In this document: positions 21,057-32,391 of the stretch, one piece after another | How the letters are laid out: every line of letters begins with the position of its first letter | Numbering within the stretch: the stretch's first letter is position 1 | Virus record (IMG/VR): IMGVR_UViG_3300034759_000344 | Location: 32,187 to 96,186 of that record | DNA length: 64,000 bases | DNA from: a virus | Direction: 5' to 3' (one strand) | Translations under genes and position numbers: made by a program | Notes under the pieces: generated by a model | The model's input: only the letters and a program-made list of their open reading frames with translations | Databases searched by the model: none | What the model was told of the DNA's origin: nothing

Positions 21057-22538
21057 TTAAACCTTATTAAAGTATGGAGAACCGAGTTCTGCCTTGTAAG
21101 TATAGCCAGCACCAGAAATGGATACTTTTAATATTGTGGTAGCGTTGTGAGGTATCCCATAAATACACCCATTGGTAGCAAGAATGCCACCGTCCCACTT
21201 GTACAAATCGGTCAAACTTCCAAAGGTGGTTATTGAGTCATCAGATGGATTTATCTTAAGAACTGTGGTAGCGTTGCTAGGTATCCCATAAATACACCCA
21301 TTGGTAGCAAGAATGCCACCTTCCCACTTGTACGAACCGGTCAAACTTCCAAAGGTGGTTATTGAGTCATCAGATGGATTTATCTTAAGAACTGTGGTAG
21401 CGTTGAAAGGTATCCCGTAAATACATCCGTTGGTAGCAAGAATGCCACCTTCCCACTTGATTGAGTCACTACTCAAACTTCCAAAGGTGGTTATTGAGTC
21501 ATCAGATGGATTTATCTTAAGAACTGTGGTAGCGTTGTGAGGTATCCCGTAAATACATCCATTGGTAGCAAGAACGCCACCAAACCACTTGTACGAACCG
21601 GTCAAACTTCCAAAGGTGGTTATTGAGTCATCAGATGGATTTATCTTAAGAACTGTGGTAGCGTAGTGAGGTATCCCATAAATACATCCATTGGTAGCAA
21701 GAACGCCACCAAACCACTTGTACGAACCGGTCAAACTTCCAAAGGTGGTTATTGAGTCATCAGATGGATTTATCTTAAGAACTGTGGTAGCGTTGTAAGG
21801 TATCCCGTAAATACATCCATTGGTAGCAAGAATGCCACCAGCCCACTTGATTGAGTCACTACTCAAACTTCCAAAGGTGGTTATTGAGTCATCAGATGGA
21901 TTTATCTTAAGAACTGTGGTAGCGTCGTGAGGTATCCCGTAAATACATCCATTGGTAGCAAGAACGCCACCAAACCACTTGTACGAACCGGTCAAACTTC
22001 CAAAGGTGGTTATTGAGTCGGTTGTGCTAACAGTAGTTACGTGCTCAAGTCCATAAAGAGCTGGTTTCCACGTCCAGAAATAGCTTAACAGGTAACCGTT
22101 TTGCGACAACACTTGCCGACCTACTGTGGAGTCGTGGATAACGGAAATGGCAGTATCGCTTTCTCGAATAATGCCCATTGCGTTGCTACTTTCGGCGATA
22201 ATGCCCATTGCGTTGCTACTTTCGGCGATAATGCCCATTGCGTTGCTACTCTCGGCGATAATGCCCATTGCGTTGCTACTCTCGGCGATAATGCCCATTG
22301 CGTTGCTACTCTCGGCGATAATGCCCATTGCGTTGCTACTCTCGGCGATAACACTCATAGTTTGCAGCGTTTTATAAGGTTCAAAGCCTATGCCAATGAC
22401 ACCACGAAAATACCGCCCAGTAGTCTTGTAGGCATCTGTAAGGGCAAGAATGTCGCTCAGGTTGCCATATAGGCCTTCAACAAACGTATTTAATTTATAC
22501 GTTCCACCGCCACGCCTAACAAGTGTCCCTTCGCCCAT
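21057..22538 (-). CDS. Putative receptor-binding protein: 10-aa repeat stalk plus 7-repeat beta-propeller
   Basis: (AESSNAMGII)x6, then seven 43/44-aa repeats KW.GG.LATNGCIYGIP..ATTVLKINP. Confidence 0.75.
   Translation of the reverse strand: MGEGTLVRRGGGTYKLNTFVEGLYGNLSDILALTDAYKTTGRYFRGVIGIGFEPYKTLQTMSVIAESSNAMGIIAESSNAMGIIAESSNAMGIIAESSNAMGIIAESSNAMGIIAESSNAMGIIRESDTAISVIHDSTVGRQVLSQNGYLLSYFWTWKPALYGLEHVTTVSTTDSITTFGSLTGSYKWFGGVLATNGCIYGIPHDATTVLKINPSDDSITTFGSLSSDSIKWAGGILATNGCIYGIPYNATTVLKINPSDDSITTFGSLTGSYKWFGGVLATNGCIYGIPHYATTVLKINPSDDSITTFGSLTGSYKWFGGVLATNGCIYGIPHNATTVLKINPSDDSITTFGSLSSDSIKWEGGILATNGCIYGIPFNATTVLKINPSDDSITTFGSLTGSYKWEGGILATNGCIYGIPSNATTVLKINPSDDSITTFGSLTDLYKWDGGILATNGCIYGIPHNATTILKVSISGAGYTYKAELGSPYFNKV
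21135..22018 (-). repeat. Seven near-identical 129/132-bp coding repeats
   Basis: Direct repeats visible in the DNA. Confidence 0.9.
22171..22350 (-). repeat. Six tandem 30-bp coding repeats
   Basis: ATGCCCATTGCGTTGCTACT(C/T)TCGGCGATA x6, no spacers. Confidence 0.95.
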
Positions 22539-23120
22539 TTACTTCACCACCTTGGCCGTGAATGGCAAGTCTACGGTTGGCTTCTCTATAGCATAAAAGG
22601 TTATGCTATTTGTTCCAGTTACTGCCCTGTAAATGTAGCCCCATTCCTCATTTCTTATGCTGTCTGTTGCGTAGTTTCCACTCATCACGACATCGATAAT
22701 TGGCTCATCATCAGCAGTAATTCCAGTAATTGAAACTGTTTGAGAATAAGGAGCAGCCGTTCCAGACCACCCAACAGCAGATAATGTTCCAGAGTAAGTG
22801 GCTACGGTGGCAAAGTCGGAAGCACTATACCCACTATCCTGTAAATTCCCCGTAGCGTCCAAAGAAGCAAGGTTGCCAGCAGTAGTGCCAGGAACCTTGT
22901 CGGCTTTATCATTATGGGTATGTGATGCTGGTGCTGCTCCTACCTGTTCATAGGTAACCTGGTGAGGGTTATCAGTACGCAGCTCATGTGAGTTTATTTG
23001 CACCTGCAAACTGTGCAAAGTGCTGTCTATAATAGTAAAGTTGTTGTTTAATTTGTCGTCCCAGTAAGTTTCACCCTCAGAAGGAAGATATAAGTTGTAG
23101 TTAGGAGTGTAAGTAGCCAC
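22539..23120 (-). CDS. Tail fibre/adaptor protein
   Basis: YTPNYNL...NNNFTIID, NPHQVT..QVGAAP.SHTH; N-terminus paralogous to 27185-28282. Confidence 0.75.
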   Translation of the reverse strand: MATYTPNYNLYLPSEGETYWDDKLNNNFTIIDSTLHSLQVQINSHELRTDNPHQVTYEQVGAAPASHTHNDKADKVPGTTAGNLASLDATGNLQDSGYSASDFATVATYSGTLSAVGWSGTAAPYSQTVSITGITADDEPIIDVVMSGNYATDSIRNEEWGYIYRAVTGTNSITFYAIEKPTVDLPFTAKVVK

Positions 23121-23134
23121 CGACTATCCCCTCT

Positions 23135-23644
23135 TTAACTACAAGCTTGCTGGTACACTTCTTCAAAAGCTGAGTCCAGGAACTCCTCAGCATTTTGGGG
23201 AACTAAAACTCGTAGTGAAGTACCGCTGCTAGTATTTTTCAAAGACTCTATGGCTCGCAGTACGTTTATGCTTAACTGGGTAAGCAAACCCATAGTTGTG
23301 GTTAGTGTACTCTCGTTACTGATAATTGCTTGAGCAATTAGACGGGACATTACCAACTCGTTGAACAAGTTAGGTTCATCACTTTCTATTCCGCTTGCAT
23401 CAACCAATTCTCCAAATTCTTCAGATTCCAGATAATCGTGGATTTCTTTAATGTGTTTATTGAAGCCTTCATTGAGGTGGTAGATACAGAATATATTTTT
23501 GAACAAGTAGTTGAGCTGGGCTAACTCGTCTCTGTTTAGCTGAAAAGCATTAGCTTTCTCAATTAAAGAATCTATGTGCCTATCATCGCAGTTTCCCATT
23601 AACCAATAGTAGGGTTTAAGCTCTTTACTGCTAATAGTCAACAC
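23135..23644 (-). CDS. Hypothetical helical protein in the radical SAM cluster
   Basis: 169 aa, starts 4 nt after the rSAM stop. Confidence 0.55.
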   Translation of the reverse strand: MLTISSKELKPYYWLMGNCDDRHIDSLIEKANAFQLNRDELAQLNYLFKNIFCIYHLNEGFNKHIKEIHDYLESEEFGELVDASGIESDEPNLFNELVMSRLIAQAIISNESTLTTTMGLLTQLSINVLRAIESLKNTSSGTSLRVLVPQNAEEFLDSAFEEVYQQACS

Positions 23645-23647
23645 CAG

Positions 23648-24778
23648 TTACACCTCACATTTATTCCAAGGTAACTTTATACGCACTTCGTTTTGGTATC
23701 TCAAAAGCATTTTGCACACATCAGGTATGGGAATGGCTAAATCGCCCCAAAACTCAAGCTGTGCTCCCAAGCATCCTCCAGCACAGTACTCTTGGTTGAT
23801 AGGGAATTTGCACTTATGACATATCAGATTGTTATTGCGGTGGAAGTAATAAAAGAACAGAAACTTATTGCAGTCCATGTTTTCTAAATCATGAATGCTT
23901 CCAATCTTTAAATCAGGGTATATTAAGCGGTGACAAGGATAAATACTTCCATCCCAAGCTACGGTAAGCTGGGTTTGAAAACTGCAGGTCAGCCCTCTTT
24001 TTACCATCCCTGGTGTGCGGAATAGGTTAAACTGAGTTTCTCCCAGATTGATGTTTTCTTTTTGTATATAATTAATACACTTCCAGCTTTCCTCTATAAG
24101 GGTGTTTATGCGGTCGTCGTGCCAGGTTCCTCCGTTCCTCACCTGGAGCAGGAATAAATCATCTCCTACTGGATGGTCCTTGCCTCGAACCAAGCGCACG
24201 TTATCTACAAAAAACTTGAAAGTGTCAAACAAAGTATGCACAGTGGGAGCGTAGACCATAGGATGAAATCCACACAAATATCCTTCTCCATAAAGCTTAA
24301 AGAGGTTGTCGTAGTCAAGTTTTAAGTGTTTATACTCAGGGAGGCTGGGCCTCTGTTTTTCTTCCACATAAGGACCGTCAACTGAGAAGCTGAGGTTGAG
24401 CTTTCCGTACTTTTTATACAACCGCTTTATCTCTTCGGGATAGGTGGAGGCAACCCACCCGTTGTTGGGTATATTGACTAAAAATATCTGTGGGTCTTTA
24501 GCTGCTTTCTGAAGTACGTACTCAACCAAGTCTAACTGTAGAAGAGGTTCTCCACCGAACAAATCGATTTTAAACGGACGGTTTCGATACTGCTTTATCT
24601 TGGCTACAGCGGTATCTATAGTTTCTATGCTCATTTTTGGAGACTTATTACCTTGATTGTGTCGGGGCATGTAGCAGTAGCGGCAGCGTAAGTTGCACTC
24701 TGGTGACAGTATTAACTCTAAAGTCTGGAACAGTTGGTGATTTAGTAGTCTTTTAACATGCAGGAATAGTTCGTTCAA
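23648..24778 (-). CDS. Radical SAM/SPASM-domain maturase 2
   Basis: CNLRCRYC, FGGEPL, SVDG; SPASM C...DGSIYPCH...CHKC...CAGGC...C. Confidence 0.92.
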   Translation of the reverse strand: MNELFLHVKRLLNHQLFQTLELILSPECNLRCRYCYMPRHNQGNKSPKMSIETIDTAVAKIKQYRNRPFKIDLFGGEPLLQLDLVEYVLQKAAKDPQIFLVNIPNNGWVASTYPEEIKRLYKKYGKLNLSFSVDGPYVEEKQRPSLPEYKHLKLDYDNLFKLYGEGYLCGFHPMVYAPTVHTLFDTFKFFVDNVRLVRGKDHPVGDDLFLLQVRNGGTWHDDRINTLIEESWKCINYIQKENINLGETQFNLFRTPGMVKRGLTCSFQTQLTVAWDGSIYPCHRLIYPDLKIGSIHDLENMDCNKFLFFYYFHRNNNLICHKCKFPINQEYCAGGCLGAQLEFWGDLAIPIPDVCKMLLRYQNEVRIKLPWNKCEV

Positions 24779-25898
24779 AATTGCTCTGCCCCCATTCTTT
24801 GTAGTGTTTGTAGAACACTTTTACTATTTTGCAGAAATGAAAGTTTGGTGAGTAGTGAAGTCGGTTTAGATTGTGCATGTCCATAGGACATTGCCAGCAC
24901 AAAAAGGGAAATTCTTGGTACACTTCACATTCTTGCTGTTTACAGAAAGCAGCTCTAATTAGGTCGTAGTTATATTTGAAATACACATTGCGGTAAACGG
25001 CTTTGGGATCCAGGTACTCTGCATAAACGTTCCCTAATTTGAAGTAGTCCTGCTTGGTGTTGTCTGTAGACGGTCCGTGGCAGTGGTAAATGCTTCCATC
25101 TAAATCAACACATACTTGAGAATGACATGCTGAACAAACGTTGTTGGGCCTGTTGAAGTACACAAACCATCCCAGTTGTGCCTTTTCATTCTTTTCACAG
25201 TACTCTTTACAGCGGTAAAGGTCTTCATCAAGAGCTTGGGCAGCTTCTTCATCATAAACACTGTCTTTGACTAAGGTAACTGGAGACATAGGATGTTTTA
25301 GCTCTTCCCAAAAGAATTCGCAGGCTTTGTAGAAGTGCCCTTTTTTGACTTGTTCAGGACTTAAAGTGGACTTTATCATCAATTTACTGGTGAAATCTGG
25401 TATTTCTTTGGTCATTATTTCGTAATGTTCCATAACTTTATGGAAAGACCCTTCTCCACCCGCTGTCTTTCTTGCGTAGTCGTGTACTTCTTGAGGTCCA
25501 TCAAGGCTTAGCTGTATGCTTTCAATTTTGTCCCAGTGTTTTTTAACAAACTTGACATAACTTTCGGGAGTGGTAGTGGCATTGGTTGACCAGTTGGTGG
25601 TTACTGGACAGTCAGAGTAATTTTGGAATATGTAAGTAAGTACTTCTTCAATGGTATCCCATTGACATAGTGGTTCGGCACCCCACGGTATGATCTTGCA
25701 CGGAGTGTTGGGTTTAAGTATGTTGGGAAAAACCTTTCTTATCGGCTCTAAAAGCGGAATAACTTCATTGGCTTTAATTTCTATTTGTTTGTAGGTAGCA
25801 TCTCTGATATAGCAGTAAGAGCAGCGGAGATTACATTTTTTGGACATGGGAATTTCTATAACATAAATGCTTTTAAGAAATTTGGACAAGTCTACCAT
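24753..25898 (-). CDS. Radical SAM/SPASM-domain maturase 1
   Basis: CNLRCSYC, WGAEPL, SLDG; C...DGSIYHCH...C....C...CWQCP...C; ATG at 25898 after GGAGG. Confidence 0.9.
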   Translation of the reverse strand: MVDLSKFLKSIYVIEIPMSKKCNLRCSYCYIRDATYKQIEIKANEVIPLLEPIRKVFPNILKPNTPCKIIPWGAEPLCQWDTIEEVLTYIFQNYSDCPVTTNWSTNATTTPESYVKFVKKHWDKIESIQLSLDGPQEVHDYARKTAGGEGSFHKVMEHYEIMTKEIPDFTSKLMIKSTLSPEQVKKGHFYKACEFFWEELKHPMSPVTLVKDSVYDEEAAQALDEDLYRCKEYCEKNEKAQLGWFVYFNRPNNVCSACHSQVCVDLDGSIYHCHGPSTDNTKQDYFKLGNVYAEYLDPKAVYRNVYFKYNYDLIRAAFCKQQECEVYQEFPFLCWQCPMDMHNLNRLHYSPNFHFCKIVKVFYKHYKEWGQSNFERTIPAC

Positions 25899-26193
25899 AA
25901 AATGCCTCCAATACTGCCTCAAATGAAGGTAAGTAGCAAGGACCTTTTGCACTTACCGCATTGTTGGTACTGTTAACTCCATCTACACTACGTTGATGGT
26001 GGGCAGTAGAGTTCAAAGTGGAATAGCTCAAACTGTGCCCATCGTTACTGTATACTGCTTTGTTGTAGCTTGTGTAGTAAGAGCTGTTGTGAGTAGGACA
26101 GGCAGCTTCCAAGCTCTCTATAGCAGTCCTTAATTCAGAAATATGTACTTGTCTCACTTTTGTGGTATTAGTTATACTATCGGTCCAAGACAT
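25873..26193 (-). CDS. Small fibre-like protein / putative rSAM substrate B
   Basis: MSWTD...KVRQVHISELRTAI leader, then CPTH and a Y/S/N/H-rich tail ending GPCY; GGAGG SD. Confidence 0.65.
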   Translation of the reverse strand: MSWTDSITNTTKVRQVHISELRTAIESLEAACPTHNSSYYTSYNKAVYSNDGHSLSYSTLNSTAHHQRSVDGVNSTNNAVSAKGPCYLPSFEAVLEAFYGRLVQIS

Positions 26194-26205
26194 GATTGCC
26201 TCCGT

Positions 26206-26592
26206 TTATACGTAGTGCACGCAGTTGCCACTACCCAAAGCATAGTTGTATTTAGCAGTTCCGTTTTCGCTTGAGTCGTGGCCGCTGTAGTTGGATCCGT
26301 AATCAATACTGTGAGCAGTTCCGTAGTTAGAACAGTAACCGTCGTAGCTTGAGTTATAGGAGCGTACGGTAGTATGGTGAGTACCACAGCCAACAGTTAG
26401 CGGGGTTCCATCAACAGCAGAACGCAGGTCATTTATATGAGAAGCAAGAATTTTACTTTGCTCAGCAGTAATATTTATGGAAAGCTGGGAATACCCACGC
26501 TCACTACGCTCTGTGTTGAGCCTGGATACTATTTCGTCAATATGTATCTTTCTGATTTTAATATTGGTTAAATTAGTATCTGTCCAAGCCAT
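26206..26592 (-). CDS. Small fibre-like protein / putative rSAM substrate A
   Basis: MAWTD...KIRKIHIDEI...KILASHINDLRSAV leader, then CGTH and a Y/S/N/G/H-rich tail ending NCVHYV. Confidence 0.65.
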   Translation of the reverse strand: MAWTDTNLTNIKIRKIHIDEIVSRLNTERSERGYSQLSINITAEQSKILASHINDLRSAVDGTPLTVGCGTHHTTVRSYNSSYDGYCSNYGTAHSIDYGSNYSGHDSSENGTAKYNYALGSGNCVHYV

Positions 26593-26595
26593 GGG

Positions 26596-26937
26596 TTAGT
26601 GGATTTGCCTAATGACAATATCCAAATCACAAACTGGAATACCGAAGGTGAGGTTTATTTGGTCCAATAAGTAACCAGGTTCTGTGTTTCCTATAGTGTA
26701 AAAGCACTTGGTGTTGTAGTAGAGGTTCATCTCAATAGGCTTTTTAGCCACTTCGTTCAGCTGACTGGCAATGCGTACAGCATCTTCAGGAGACACGTTA
26801 ATGCGTATGTGCATTACATTTATTAAAGATCCGTCGCTGGCAATTTCTTTGTTCTGCATCATGGAAAGAAACCCTACTTCCTCAGCCAAAACTGTCTCAG
26901 TATTTTCTCTATCTATGATTTCTATGGAATAGCCCAT
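26596..26937 (-). CDS. Hypothetical protein
   Basis: 113 aa, GGAGGT SD. Confidence 0.55.
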   Translation of the reverse strand: MGYSIEIIDRENTETVLAEEVGFLSMMQNKEIASDGSLINVMHIRINVSPEDAVRIASQLNEVAKKPIEMNLYYNTKCFYTIGNTEPGYLLDQINLTFGIPVCDLDIVIRQIH

Positions 26938-26939
26938 AG

Positions 26940-27188
26940 TTACACCTCCATGGGAATCAAATACATTTCAGAGAGTTTATGGCAGGTATAGATACTTACG
27001 GTCTTCAAGTTAATGAAGTATGTGTTGTTTTCCCACTCTACTTCCAGGTTGTATCCAGGGTTTACGTAGTTCATAATTGACTGCAGTACTGGAAAAGATC
27101 CTCTGATGCGAATTCTGTTTCCTGTAGGCAGCTCATCTACCCCGACATAATCTACTTCAAACTCTCTTCCATTTATTAAAATATTCAT
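26940..27188 (-). CDS. Hypothetical protein
   Basis: 82 aa, ATGA-coupled to the fibre gene. Confidence 0.55.
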   Translation of the reverse strand: MNILINGREFEVDYVGVDELPTGNRIRIRGSFPVLQSIMNYVNPGYNLEVEWENNTYFINLKTVSIYTCHKLSEMYLIPMEV

Positions 27189-28282
27189 CTTATCAACACC
27201 TTTATTTTCCTAACTTCATGCCGTCCTACACTTTCCATAGCTTTAGCTACCACTTCTTGGTTGCGTTTGGCTTTTTTCAGCATCCCGTCTTTTCCTACAG
27301 TAAGTGGGTCTCCAGGTTTCACGCCTTTTTTACCACCATCCACTTTGGCATACACTTGACCTACTAAAGCTAAAGGAACTTTCTTGTGTTTTTGGTATTC
27401 TTCTTCCCAGTTATGGGTCATACCTAAAAGCAGTCCTGGATGATAAGAAACTATACCTGCAAAGCTACCTCCATTTACTGCTTTCATAACCCTACCGTCA
27501 TCTGTGAACACCATTACTGTACCTTCTTCAGGCAGCCTAGGTTCTACAGTAATAAATCCTTCAGCAAGGTCGGAATTGTACACGGCTCCCACTAATCCGT
27601 AATCATTGACATAAGCTCTGGTAGTTCCTCCAGTCTGGAAATAGATAGTTTGCCCTGAAGGAACATTTATGCCAGTAGCTGAAGTGTTGCTTTTCCATAC
27701 AAAGTCCTCAGCATGTTTATTATCTACAGTATCGGCATTGTCAGCCTGCTCTACACTTCCATCACTATCTGGGTCATAGGTAGCTTTGGTCATCTCTCCA
27801 GCTACAGTGTAATTACTGCCATCAGTTGAAAACTCAAGCAGGGAGCCGTTAACCCTGAAGTGGATGTTATCTACGGTATCTGAATTGTCAGCTTGTTCTA
27901 CGCTTCCATCATCATCAGGGTCATAAGCGGATTTAGTCATTTCCCCAGCTACAATGTAGTTGCGACCGTCAGTCGAAAATTCCAGCAGTCCAGCGCTGAC
28001 TCTTAGGTGGACGTTGTCCACGGTATCAGCATTGGCAGCCTGAGGTACCTGACCGTAGATATCGCTACCTACATGCTGGTGCTGCGCAGGAGCAGCACCA
28101 GTTTGGTCATAGGTGACTTGATGGGGATTGTTAGTGTCATTTTTGTGAGCATTTAACAATCCAGTTAAGGAAGCTATAAGACTGTCTATAGTTTCCAAAT
28201 TCCCGTTTATCTCATCGTGCCAGTTTACGTCTCCTGGTGCTGGTAAAGCAAAATTGTAGTTCGGAGTGTAGCTGTTAGCCAT
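27185..28282 (-). CDS. Tail fibre protein with C-terminal intramolecular chaperone (peptidase G2/IMC-like)
   Basis: NPHQVT, NADTVD, YDPD.DG.V..AD repeats; YNSDLAEGF...GIVS..PG...VPLALVGQVYAKV...PGD.L. Confidence 0.8.
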   Translation of the reverse strand: MANSYTPNYNFALPAPGDVNWHDEINGNLETIDSLIASLTGLLNAHKNDTNNPHQVTYDQTGAAPAQHQHVGSDIYGQVPQAANADTVDNVHLRVSAGLLEFSTDGRNYIVAGEMTKSAYDPDDDGSVEQADNSDTVDNIHFRVNGSLLEFSTDGSNYTVAGEMTKATYDPDSDGSVEQADNADTVDNKHAEDFVWKSNTSATGINVPSGQTIYFQTGGTTRAYVNDYGLVGAVYNSDLAEGFITVEPRLPEEGTVMVFTDDGRVMKAVNGGSFAGIVSYHPGLLLGMTHNWEEEYQKHKKVPLALVGQVYAKVDGGKKGVKPGDPLTVGKDGMLKKAKRNQEVVAKAMESVGRHEVRKIKVLIR

Positions 28283-31878: not shown

Positions 31879-32391
31879 TTAGAAGTTGAATACGATGTAG
31901 AATACTTCGTACTGATTGGGCTGAATGTGCAGCGGTTCTCGATTAGACACCCACTCAAGGTATCCCGTAAATTCCACTTCAGATGGAAGCAGTAAGGTTT
32001 TTCCTTCATTGCCTGCAGTTGGTACCAACTTGCTGTATAGTCCTACCTGACGGAAAGTAACATCGTCACTGATATCGGTATCAGTAATAGTTGCTTTAAT
32101 GAGTATTGTGGTCACCAGGTTGTTGCGAGCAAATTCTTCGGATACTGCTTTATAAGTTACTCCTTGTACTATGTACTCGCCTGTAGTATCTTCTACCACA
32201 AAGGTTTTAACGTCTGCTTTTTTAAAGATTACTGGTTCTTCTACGTCTAAAATATCTGGACTTACTATAGGTGGATTATTTTCATCTGGCCAGGGAGTGG
32301 TTCTACCTATACAAATCCATAAATCTCCAGATATGAAATCCATAGCTCTTGATATGTTTCCAATTACAGGAATGGCAATACTATTTGGCAT
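31879..32391 (-). CDS. Baseplate wedge protein
   Basis: IGRTTPWPDENNPP, FRQVGL. Confidence 0.7.
   Translation of the reverse strand: MPNSIAIPVIGNISRAMDFISGDLWICIGRTTPWPDENNPPIVSPDILDVEEPVIFKKADVKTFVVEDTTGEYIVQGVTYKAVSEEFARNNLVTTILIKATITDTDISDDVTFRQVGLYSKLVPTAGNEGKTLLLPSEVEFTGYLEWVSNREPLHIQPNQYEVFYIVFNF

Follow-up and report, generated by a model that had tools for sequence, protein, structure and literature searches.

Paralogous proteins with a Ser/Thr-periodic core precede radical SAM enzymes in the fibre operon of a myovirus and are candidate substrates for them

The stretch of DNA analysed here, called the window, comprises 64,000 nucleotides (positions 32,187 to 96,186) of the IMG/VR virus record IMGVR_UViG_3300034759_000344, a 96-kb record estimated to be ~63% complete. 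Genes for portal, major head, sheath and DNA polymerase are present and mark the phage as a myovirus. Two short open reading frames (ORFs) with homologues lie next to each other on the minus strand, gene A (26206-26592, 128 residues) and its shorter paralogue gene B (25873-26193, 106 residues), and are followed on the same strand by two genes for radical S-adenosylmethionine (SAM)/SPASM enzymes, enzyme 1 (24753-25898, 381 residues from the ATG at 25898; PF04055 E 1e-10) and enzyme 2 (23648-24778, 376 residues; PF04055 E 2e-14, SPASM E 5e-4). All four belong to a minus-strand run of genes from 28282 to 22539 in which gaps and overlaps are 26 nt or less, and no terminator-like site was found on this strand between 23120 and 28282. 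Gene A starts 3 nt past the stop of the preceding gene, and gene B has a GGAGG at 26199-26203, 5 nt ahead of its ATG. The proteins A and B are substrate-like in their layout and in their position, and it is this pair, its relatives and its enzymes that are described below.

Protein A was divided into a leader of residues 1-68 (26389-26592), supported by a profile of the repeat unit described below and by helices in an AlphaFold2 model, and a core of residues 69-128 (26209-26388), recognised by composition and periodicity. The leader holds two units, the first running from WTD to KIRKIHIDEI and the second containing KILASHINDLR, and ends in TPLTVG; the core, with 3 Cys, runs from C-G-T-H to YNYALGSGNC-VHYV. 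Protein B has one unit in a leader of residues 1-31 (26101-26193), a core of residues 32-88 (25930-26100) running from C-P-T-H to KGPCYL, and an unconserved 18-residue tail after the core. A preliminary description of this locus, made from the sequence beforehand, had treated A and B as paralogues, and this was borne out by BLASTP with E 4e-6 for the N-termini and 2e-5 for A residues 46-95 against B residues 11-62. The strings on which it had relied are all present. Both proteins open with M(A/S)WTD (MAWTD in A, MSWTD in B) and carry K(I/V)RxxHIxE(I/L), as KIRKIHIDEI in A and KVRQVHISEL in B, and the longer protein has a second copy, KILASHINDLRSAV, at residues 47-60. Both switch at C-x-T-H into the core, both cores contain NSSY and TAH, and both have a Cys close to the core end, in NCVHYV (A) and GPCY (B); the shared NSSY and TAH are short strings in low-complexity sequence and carry no weight by themselves. 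The string NYGT-AHSI-DYGS-NYSG-HDSS-ENGT occupies A residues 89-112. The core of A consists to 77% of Tyr, Ser, Asn, His, Gly, Thr and Asp vs 43% for the leader, which agrees with the Tyr/Ser/Asn/His-rich character given to it before.

The unit at the front of A and B is ~37 residues long, with the consensus WTD...KIRxxHIxELR, and is present in two copies in A and one in B. No model for it was found in Pfam or NCBIfam. A hidden Markov model (HMM) of the unit, built only from proteins unrelated to A and B, recognised A at residues 3-22 and 42-62 (E 4e-4 and 2e-3) and B with E 3e-11, and left the window's 407 other six-frame segments without a match. Homologues of A were found at E 1e-21 to 1e-25 in one search and at E 1e-21 to 1e-43 in a profile search, and a profile of A plus the three homologues nearest to it retrieved 139 proteins among 1.84 billion representatives. 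When the 144 collected proteins were sorted with the unit HMM, 72 ended in units (usually three), which in most cases followed lectin, beta-propeller, Calx-beta, Kelch/FG-GAP or RHS domains; 31 carried a Cys-rich tail behind the units, some of them with lectin, propeller or RHS domains ahead of the units; and ~25, with A and B in this group, carried a Tyr/Ser/Asn/His-rich tail there. Genomes carrying the C-terminal triple-unit proteins were those of Patescibacteria (Wolfebacteria, Nomurabacteria and others), where the genes lie near pilin-like genes. One unit also forms the N-terminus of a 309-residue tail fibre with a Gp10_C-like end at another phage locus (L034), which has no radical SAM gene. 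The analysis thus defines an unnamed, widespread repeat unit that is common to phages and candidate-phyla bacteria.

An AlphaFold2 model of a three-unit protein showed one helix per unit with a predicted TM score of 0.74. Its structural matches were weak, with Z at most 7.2; the best rows, a designed filament and a BARA domain at Z ~7, are in the noise range for helical models, and S-layer homology (SLH) domains scored Z 3.9-4.0. Triple-repeat anchoring modules of the SLH type resemble the C-terminal triple units in that three tandem units end diverse secreted proteins, but the likeness is by analogy only, there being no sequence relation to the WTD/HIxELR unit and a weak structural match.

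The preliminary description expected a conserved leader and a variable core among homologues, and this was found. Among 12 members of the close family, mean identity was 56% in the leader and 31% in the core, against a shuffled baseline of 22%; leader identity exceeded core identity in every one of the 66 pairs, and the cores varied in length from 32 to 81 residues. The junction ...TP-x-T-x-G-C is nearly invariant in this close family. At the other end two motifs recur, (F/Y)NY(A/I)LGSGNC in A, P0009, P0010 and the relatives at loci L004 and L005, and K(G/A)(P/A)C(F/Y) in B, its orthologues, P0002, P0004, P0006 and P0007. Conserved sequence thus flanks the variable stretch at either end, with a Cys in each flank, so that the earlier term Cys-bracketed is justified. 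In the AlphaFold2 model of A, made from a shallow alignment of 16 sequences, the leader had a predicted local distance difference test (pLDDT) score of 76-86 with helices at residues 11-31 and 50-62, and the core a pLDDT of ~30. A core unlikely to fold alone had been proposed, and the ordinary beta-helix that would have spoken against it was not predicted. Fold searches with the model against PDB and BFVD returned nothing at E <=0.001, and a PDB sequence search with the family profile returned nothing meaningful. The proposed helical front was thus found, both conserved and modelled as helices; as a dedicated leader of a ribosomally synthesised and post-translationally modified peptide (RiPP) it was not upheld, the front being a general repeat unit that is also used by surface proteins outside phages.

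A rhythm of about four residues had been noticed in the cores. It is real and extends over the whole family, but it is carried mainly by Ser and Thr and not by the aromatic residues, even though the latter are spaced 4, 3, 4, 4, 4, 4 and 3 in the core of A. The autocorrelation of Ser/Thr over 22 cores gave z +11.2, +9.3 and +7.0 at lags 4, 8 and 12 and z -11.6, -8.1 and -7.4 at lags 2, 6 and 10. Related sequences inflate these z-scores, so the tests on single proteins, in which lag-4 minus lag-2 autocorrelation was compared with 2000 shuffles of each core, are the safer figures: period 4 was found with p <0.05 in 21 of the 22 cores, including A (p 0.0025) and B (p 0.0375). Around aromatic residues Ser/Thr is enriched at -2 (z 6.4) and at +2, and depleted at +4 and -4. 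The count of aromatic-x-(S/T) triplets was 139 observed vs 95 expected (z 5.9), an enrichment which fits the cyclophane-type linking suggested earlier; in the two cores of the window 11 were observed vs 6.2 expected (z 2.6). The enrichment seen for N-x-S/T sequons belongs to the general period-4 pattern and is not separate from it. Several homologues (P0018, P0008, P0009) show in addition an 8-residue super-period, as in NDSTVYSD-KDATIHSD of P0018. Given that the rule is kept while the core sequence is not, selection appears to act on the pattern.

The arrangement of a unit-plus-tail protein followed within ~400 nt by one to three genes with CxxxCxxC and SPASM motifs was found in seven viral lineages: that of the window, L003-L005, L008, L010, L011, L012-L032 and L033. 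The metagenomic loci L003-L005 have the cassette of the window at ~50% identity, in the order fibre gene, a 204-residue ORF, A', B', enzyme 1, enzyme 2 and a helper gene; their B orthologues keep the leader (68%) and the motif AKGPCYL but not the C-terminal tail. Syntenic copies of gene A are present in L003-L006. When viral contigs were scanned for the unit, 26 loci were found. Wherever enough downstream sequence is available in them, the unit-plus-tail protein has a fibre-like gene ahead of it and one (L010) or three (L011, L012-L032, L033) CxxxCxxC/SPASM genes behind it. L008 is a further case. No CxxxCxxC/SPASM gene was found in the 5-kb upstream flanks of these loci. Across lineages the unit proteins are at most 55% identical and the enzymes match those of the window with only 40-85 bits, so that the pairing is old or recurrent. 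Scans of viral sequences with A1, enzyme 1, P0019 and P0016 as queries gave no matches, and enzyme 2 found only the fragmentary locus L041. This locus, on a low-GC contig with no usable upstream flank, has a 28% identical relative of enzyme 2 (L041:891-2249) that reads as two ORFs with table 11; an intron, a break in the gene or another genetic code may be the cause. At L006 an IS200/605 pair (TnpA-like, 143 residues, and TnpB-like, 379 residues; L006:1500-3121) directly follows the A-like gene where B and the enzymes would be expected, and the contig ends soon after.

Enzyme 1 has its CxxxCxxC motif at residues 22-29, GAEP in place of GGEP, and a SPASM-like pattern of C-terminal cysteines; a GTG at 25952 is also open as an alternative start. 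Enzyme 2 has CxxxCxxC at residues 28-35 and SPASM cysteines between 265 and 355 (TIGR04085 E 3e-9), and it is enzyme 2 that SPASM models match. The structure of CteB carries an N-terminal RiPP recognition element (RRE). In searches of the PDB enzyme 1 aligned with anSME (4k36) and with CteB (5wgg), in the latter case from residue 100, and enzyme 2 with CteB (5wgg, E 8e-19); the enzyme alignments start near CteB residue 95-100. Both are related to SPASM maturases of peptides and proteins, and as they start almost at CxxxCxxC, they lack an N-terminal RRE of the CteB type. Pfam found no PqqD-like RRE in the small ORFs, though remote RRE folds could escape such a search. Among cultured phages no relatives were found by DNA or protein apart from remote relatives of the enzymes, only ~22% identical, in Campylobacter CP220-like phages.

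No system of this arrangement was found in the family databases or literature searched, nor any paper in which the fibre proteins of a phage are modified by radical SAM enzymes, but several known systems share part of it. Triceptides are three-residue cyclophane RiPPs made by the radical SAM/SPASM enzymes XncB, OscB, MscB/FxsB, YxdB, HaaB and YhhB; in the MscB product Phe is bonded to the C-beta of the Ser at i+2, and the donor residues known so far include Tyr and His (PMC11002830). The likeness lies in a SPASM enzyme encoded beside a substrate with repeated aromatic-x-(Ser/Asn/Asp/Arg/Ala) triplets, and repeated motifs of this aromatic-X-X3 form are indeed present in the cores. The differences are that the window enzymes score only 32-58 bits against family cut-offs of 310-445 (enzyme 1, which is not a member, has 48.7, 32.1 and 57.7 bits against TIGR04261, TIGR04269 and NF041707, with cut-offs of 310, 370 and 445), and that the A/B-family substrates are proteins of 100-370 residues with a folded repeat-unit front, encoded in a phage fibre operon, in which a cross-link would be expected only by analogy.

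In the anti-phage system HXS, of gene order HxsD-HxsB-HxsC-HxsA (Nat Commun 2026, PMC13128918), two radical SAM enzymes and a small helper mature a protein-sized substrate with His-x-Ser repeats, and the product remains a protein. HXS differs in being a defence system of Pseudomonadota with a peptidoglycan-binding effector and another gene order, and the models for HxsB (TIGR03978, 54-59 bits vs 370), HxsC (TIGR03977, 21.6 bits) and HxsD (TIGR03976, no match) do not admit the window proteins. The CXXX-repeat system (target TIGR04114, maturase TIGR04115) likewise has a modifiable residue at every fourth position and a SPASM maturase adjoining the substrate, but the periodic residue of A and B is Ser/Thr and not Cys, the leader differs, and TIGR04115 gives 47 bits vs 350. 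The protein-like NHLP and Nif11 leaders (PMC12537861) and the splicease substrates (PMC11414181) provide examples of long, structured helical leaders that engage or activate a maturase and of proteins as substrates; they have no sequence relation to A or B. Membership of the spliceotides was considered and rejected, the XYG splice motif (Tyr/His-Gly) being at expectation and the nif11-type model TIGR04064 giving 73-79 bits vs 519. Membership of the ranthipeptides or sactipeptides (PapB, CteB) was rejected also, with PapB under its cut-off, 3 Cys in A and 2 in B, and no CX3D motif.

These results indicate that A and B are very probably substrates of the adjacent radical SAM enzymes. The fuller reading, that they are protein substrates from which a protein-sized product with repeated side-chain cross-links is made, perhaps one placed on the virion, is given a probability of roughly 0.55. 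The folded unit front would serve as a handle for the enzymes, for a docking partner or for both. Behind the near-invariant Gly-Cys follows an intrinsically unstructured segment, free to drift in sequence but bound by a rule: Ser/Thr at every fourth residue, Tyr/His (or Asn/Asp/Val) two positions off, and a short Cys-containing motif at the end. Along this segment the enzymes may install repeated cross-links between side chains, and the links that fit best would join an aromatic carbon to the C-beta of the residue two positions away (i and i+2), as in triceptides. Such links would make a rigid, protease-resistant knot of an otherwise floppy tail. The product would most likely stay protein-sized, on or with the adsorption apparatus of the virion, and not be released as a small peptide. 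A protein-sized adsorption product is favoured by the position within a tight, late operon of fibre genes, by the lack of an adjoining protease or exporter, and by the occurrence of the unit on a true fibre and behind large binding domains; that the product acts on or with the adsorption apparatus is nevertheless given only even odds.

Cyclophane formation fits the cores of A and B best but is proposed tentatively, at less than even odds, since the enzymes are not members of the triceptide families. Other modifications, taken together, have a sizeable though minority chance. They comprise thioether or ether bridges from the bracketing Cys or the periodic Ser/Thr, anSME-like oxidation of Ser, epimerisation, and excision of tyramine at Tyr-Gly. 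The best family scores of the enzymes are indeed to the thioether maturase PapB, CteB and anSME: PapB is the best NCBIfam match of both (101.7 bits for enzyme 1 and 97.2 bits for enzyme 2), and the next curated matches are CcpM, the nif11-type maturase, anSME, DynA, YhhB and HxsB. The cut-off for PapB is 340, however, and all the other scores are likewise far under theirs. A nearly invariant first core Cys, the Cys within the end motifs and the Cys-rich tails of other phage lineages agree with such other chemistry, but Cys is scarce in A (3) and B (2), with no CX3D-type motif in either. Similarly, two Tyr-Gly sites in A would suit tyramine excision, but across the family Tyr-Gly occurs as often as chance predicts (29 observed, 29 expected).

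A rival view is that A and B are small fibre or adaptor proteins of an ordinary kind, with cores that fold only on assembly, for example as a polar, beta-rich trimer repeat, and that the enzymes act elsewhere, on the large fibre proteins or on a host target. A period of 4 with an 8-residue super-period is what would be expected of a structural repeat, the AlphaFold2 alignment was shallow, and the unit occurs without a radical SAM gene in Patescibacteria and on the L034 fibre. Set against this, a tailed unit protein lies directly before the enzymes in all seven lineages with enough flanking sequence although the other neighbours change, and the number and sequence of the enzymes vary with the unit-plus-tail protein as the constant partner, so that this explanation is considered improbable.

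Equally small is the likelihood that A and B are classical RiPP precursors, the leader being cleaved and the modified core released at lysis as a small bioactive peptide, such as a bacteriocin, signal or anti-defence molecule. The generic layout of a RiPP precursor is present, with a conserved N-terminal leader, a variable C-terminal core and adjoining SPASM maturases, and the near-invariant Gly-Cys junction could mark a cleavage site. A Peptidase_U32-like ORF follows the helper gene at one related locus (L004:4343-5254), with an E of 1e-4 that is just under the Pfam cut-off. The cassette of the window, however, contains no gene for a protease, transporter or immunity protein, and no relative of the U32-like ORF was found in the 96-kb record, which is ~63% complete; furthermore the folded repeat unit that makes up the leader occurs on fibres and large surface proteins as well, the cores, at 60-300 residues, exceed the usual size in a RiPP, and the genes lie in the middle of a fibre operon.

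In the reading of A and B as protein substrates that stay protein-sized, the gene pair, its family, the contrast between leader and core, the rule of periodicity and the recurring association with radical SAM genes are direct observations; the modification itself, its chemistry and the location on the virion are what we infer from them. Several points weigh against this reading. Neither enzyme reaches the cut-off of any curated family, so the chemistry is left unassigned by family. No radical SAM genes were found near the triple-unit proteins in the Patescibacteria genomes, so that the unit, taken alone, is not a tag for recognition by radical SAM enzymes. The loci were retrieved through the unit and not through the enzymes, which biases the collection towards the unit, and L012-L032, which include close relatives, had to be counted as one lineage. 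Finally, the period-4 polar and aromatic pattern could be the structural repeat of a fold that AlphaFold2 missed.

The sequencing runs that carry this DNA are from subsurface, soil and anaerobic-digester metagenomes, with no RNA dataset among them, and such anoxic habitats would suit oxygen-sensitive radical SAM enzymes. In one of these runs (X5) contigs end at 25898 and 26592 with the A/B pair between them uncovered, an observation which carries no weight. The known substrates of radical SAM maturation are small secreted peptides and a few bacterial proteins. As a speculation, given less than even odds, phages of anaerobes might build parts of their adsorption apparatus by RiPP-like radical chemistry, combining a docking module shared with Patescibacteria surface proteins with a freely evolving Tyr/Ser/Asn segment, stapled by dedicated enzymes at every fourth residue, to give a covalently hardened, fast-diversifying receptor-binding tip. 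If phages do apply radical SAM chemistry to their own structural or adsorption proteins, it would constitute a new layer of virion biochemistry, and the cores would offer a fresh supply of cross-linked scaffolds governed by a simple sequence rule.

The remaining genes of the run, all on the minus strand, include two of fibre type. Upstream of gene A lies a tail-fibre gene (27185-28282; phrog_8147 tail fibre protein, E 1e-5) with an orthologue at the equivalent position in L003, L005 and L006. Two small ORFs of 82 residues (26940-27188) and 113 residues (26596-26937) separate it from gene A; neither has a family match in scans of Pfam, PHROGs and NCBIfam, and in L003 and L004 the two are fused into the single 204-residue ORF. 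Downstream of enzyme 2 is the gene for a conserved protein of 169 residues (23135-23644), the possible helper, with a 43% identical orthologue at the equivalent position in L004. It has no match in Pfam, PHROGs or NCBIfam and no homologues beyond L004. The strings PYYW and (I)YHLNE, kept in L004, resemble by eye the LYW and LLNDYxLRE of HxsD, but the HxsD model TIGR03976 does not match the protein and this identity was rejected. In an anaerobic-digester run from another study, a contig over the 169-residue gene (23319-23911) differs at 63 of 594 bases, and the contigs of the same run over enzyme 1 and the 113-residue ORF differ at 0-2 bases. This suggests a mosaic in which the helper gene is exchanged or fast-evolving.

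Two observations were made on other proteins that carry the unit. At L008, L011, L014 and L033 there is a second type of unit protein, with three units and a conserved Cys-rich domain of ~130 residues (CICE-x-EQC-x-YC-x-DCG ... CKCNPY-x-W), which is always accompanied by three orthologous radical SAM/SPASM genes. In the Patescibacteria loci L035-L039 the triple-unit proteins adjoin pilin-like genes and proteins ending in ...VYAP, and the fibre-like genes directly before the unit proteins in the phage loci L010, L014 and L033 end in ...YAP or ...YAS; proteins with such ends and the unit proteins may form a shared docking pair.

The cassette of the window is followed by a tail-fibre-like gene (22539-23120, minus strand; phrog_8147 E 2e-6). 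Beyond it, at 21057-22538, is a 493-residue protein whose front part matches the tail fibre protein phrog_7809 of PHROGs and has IIAESSNAMG repeats at its N-terminus, followed by seven near-identical blades of ~46 residues (...TTFGSL...KW-GG-LATNGCIYGIP...).

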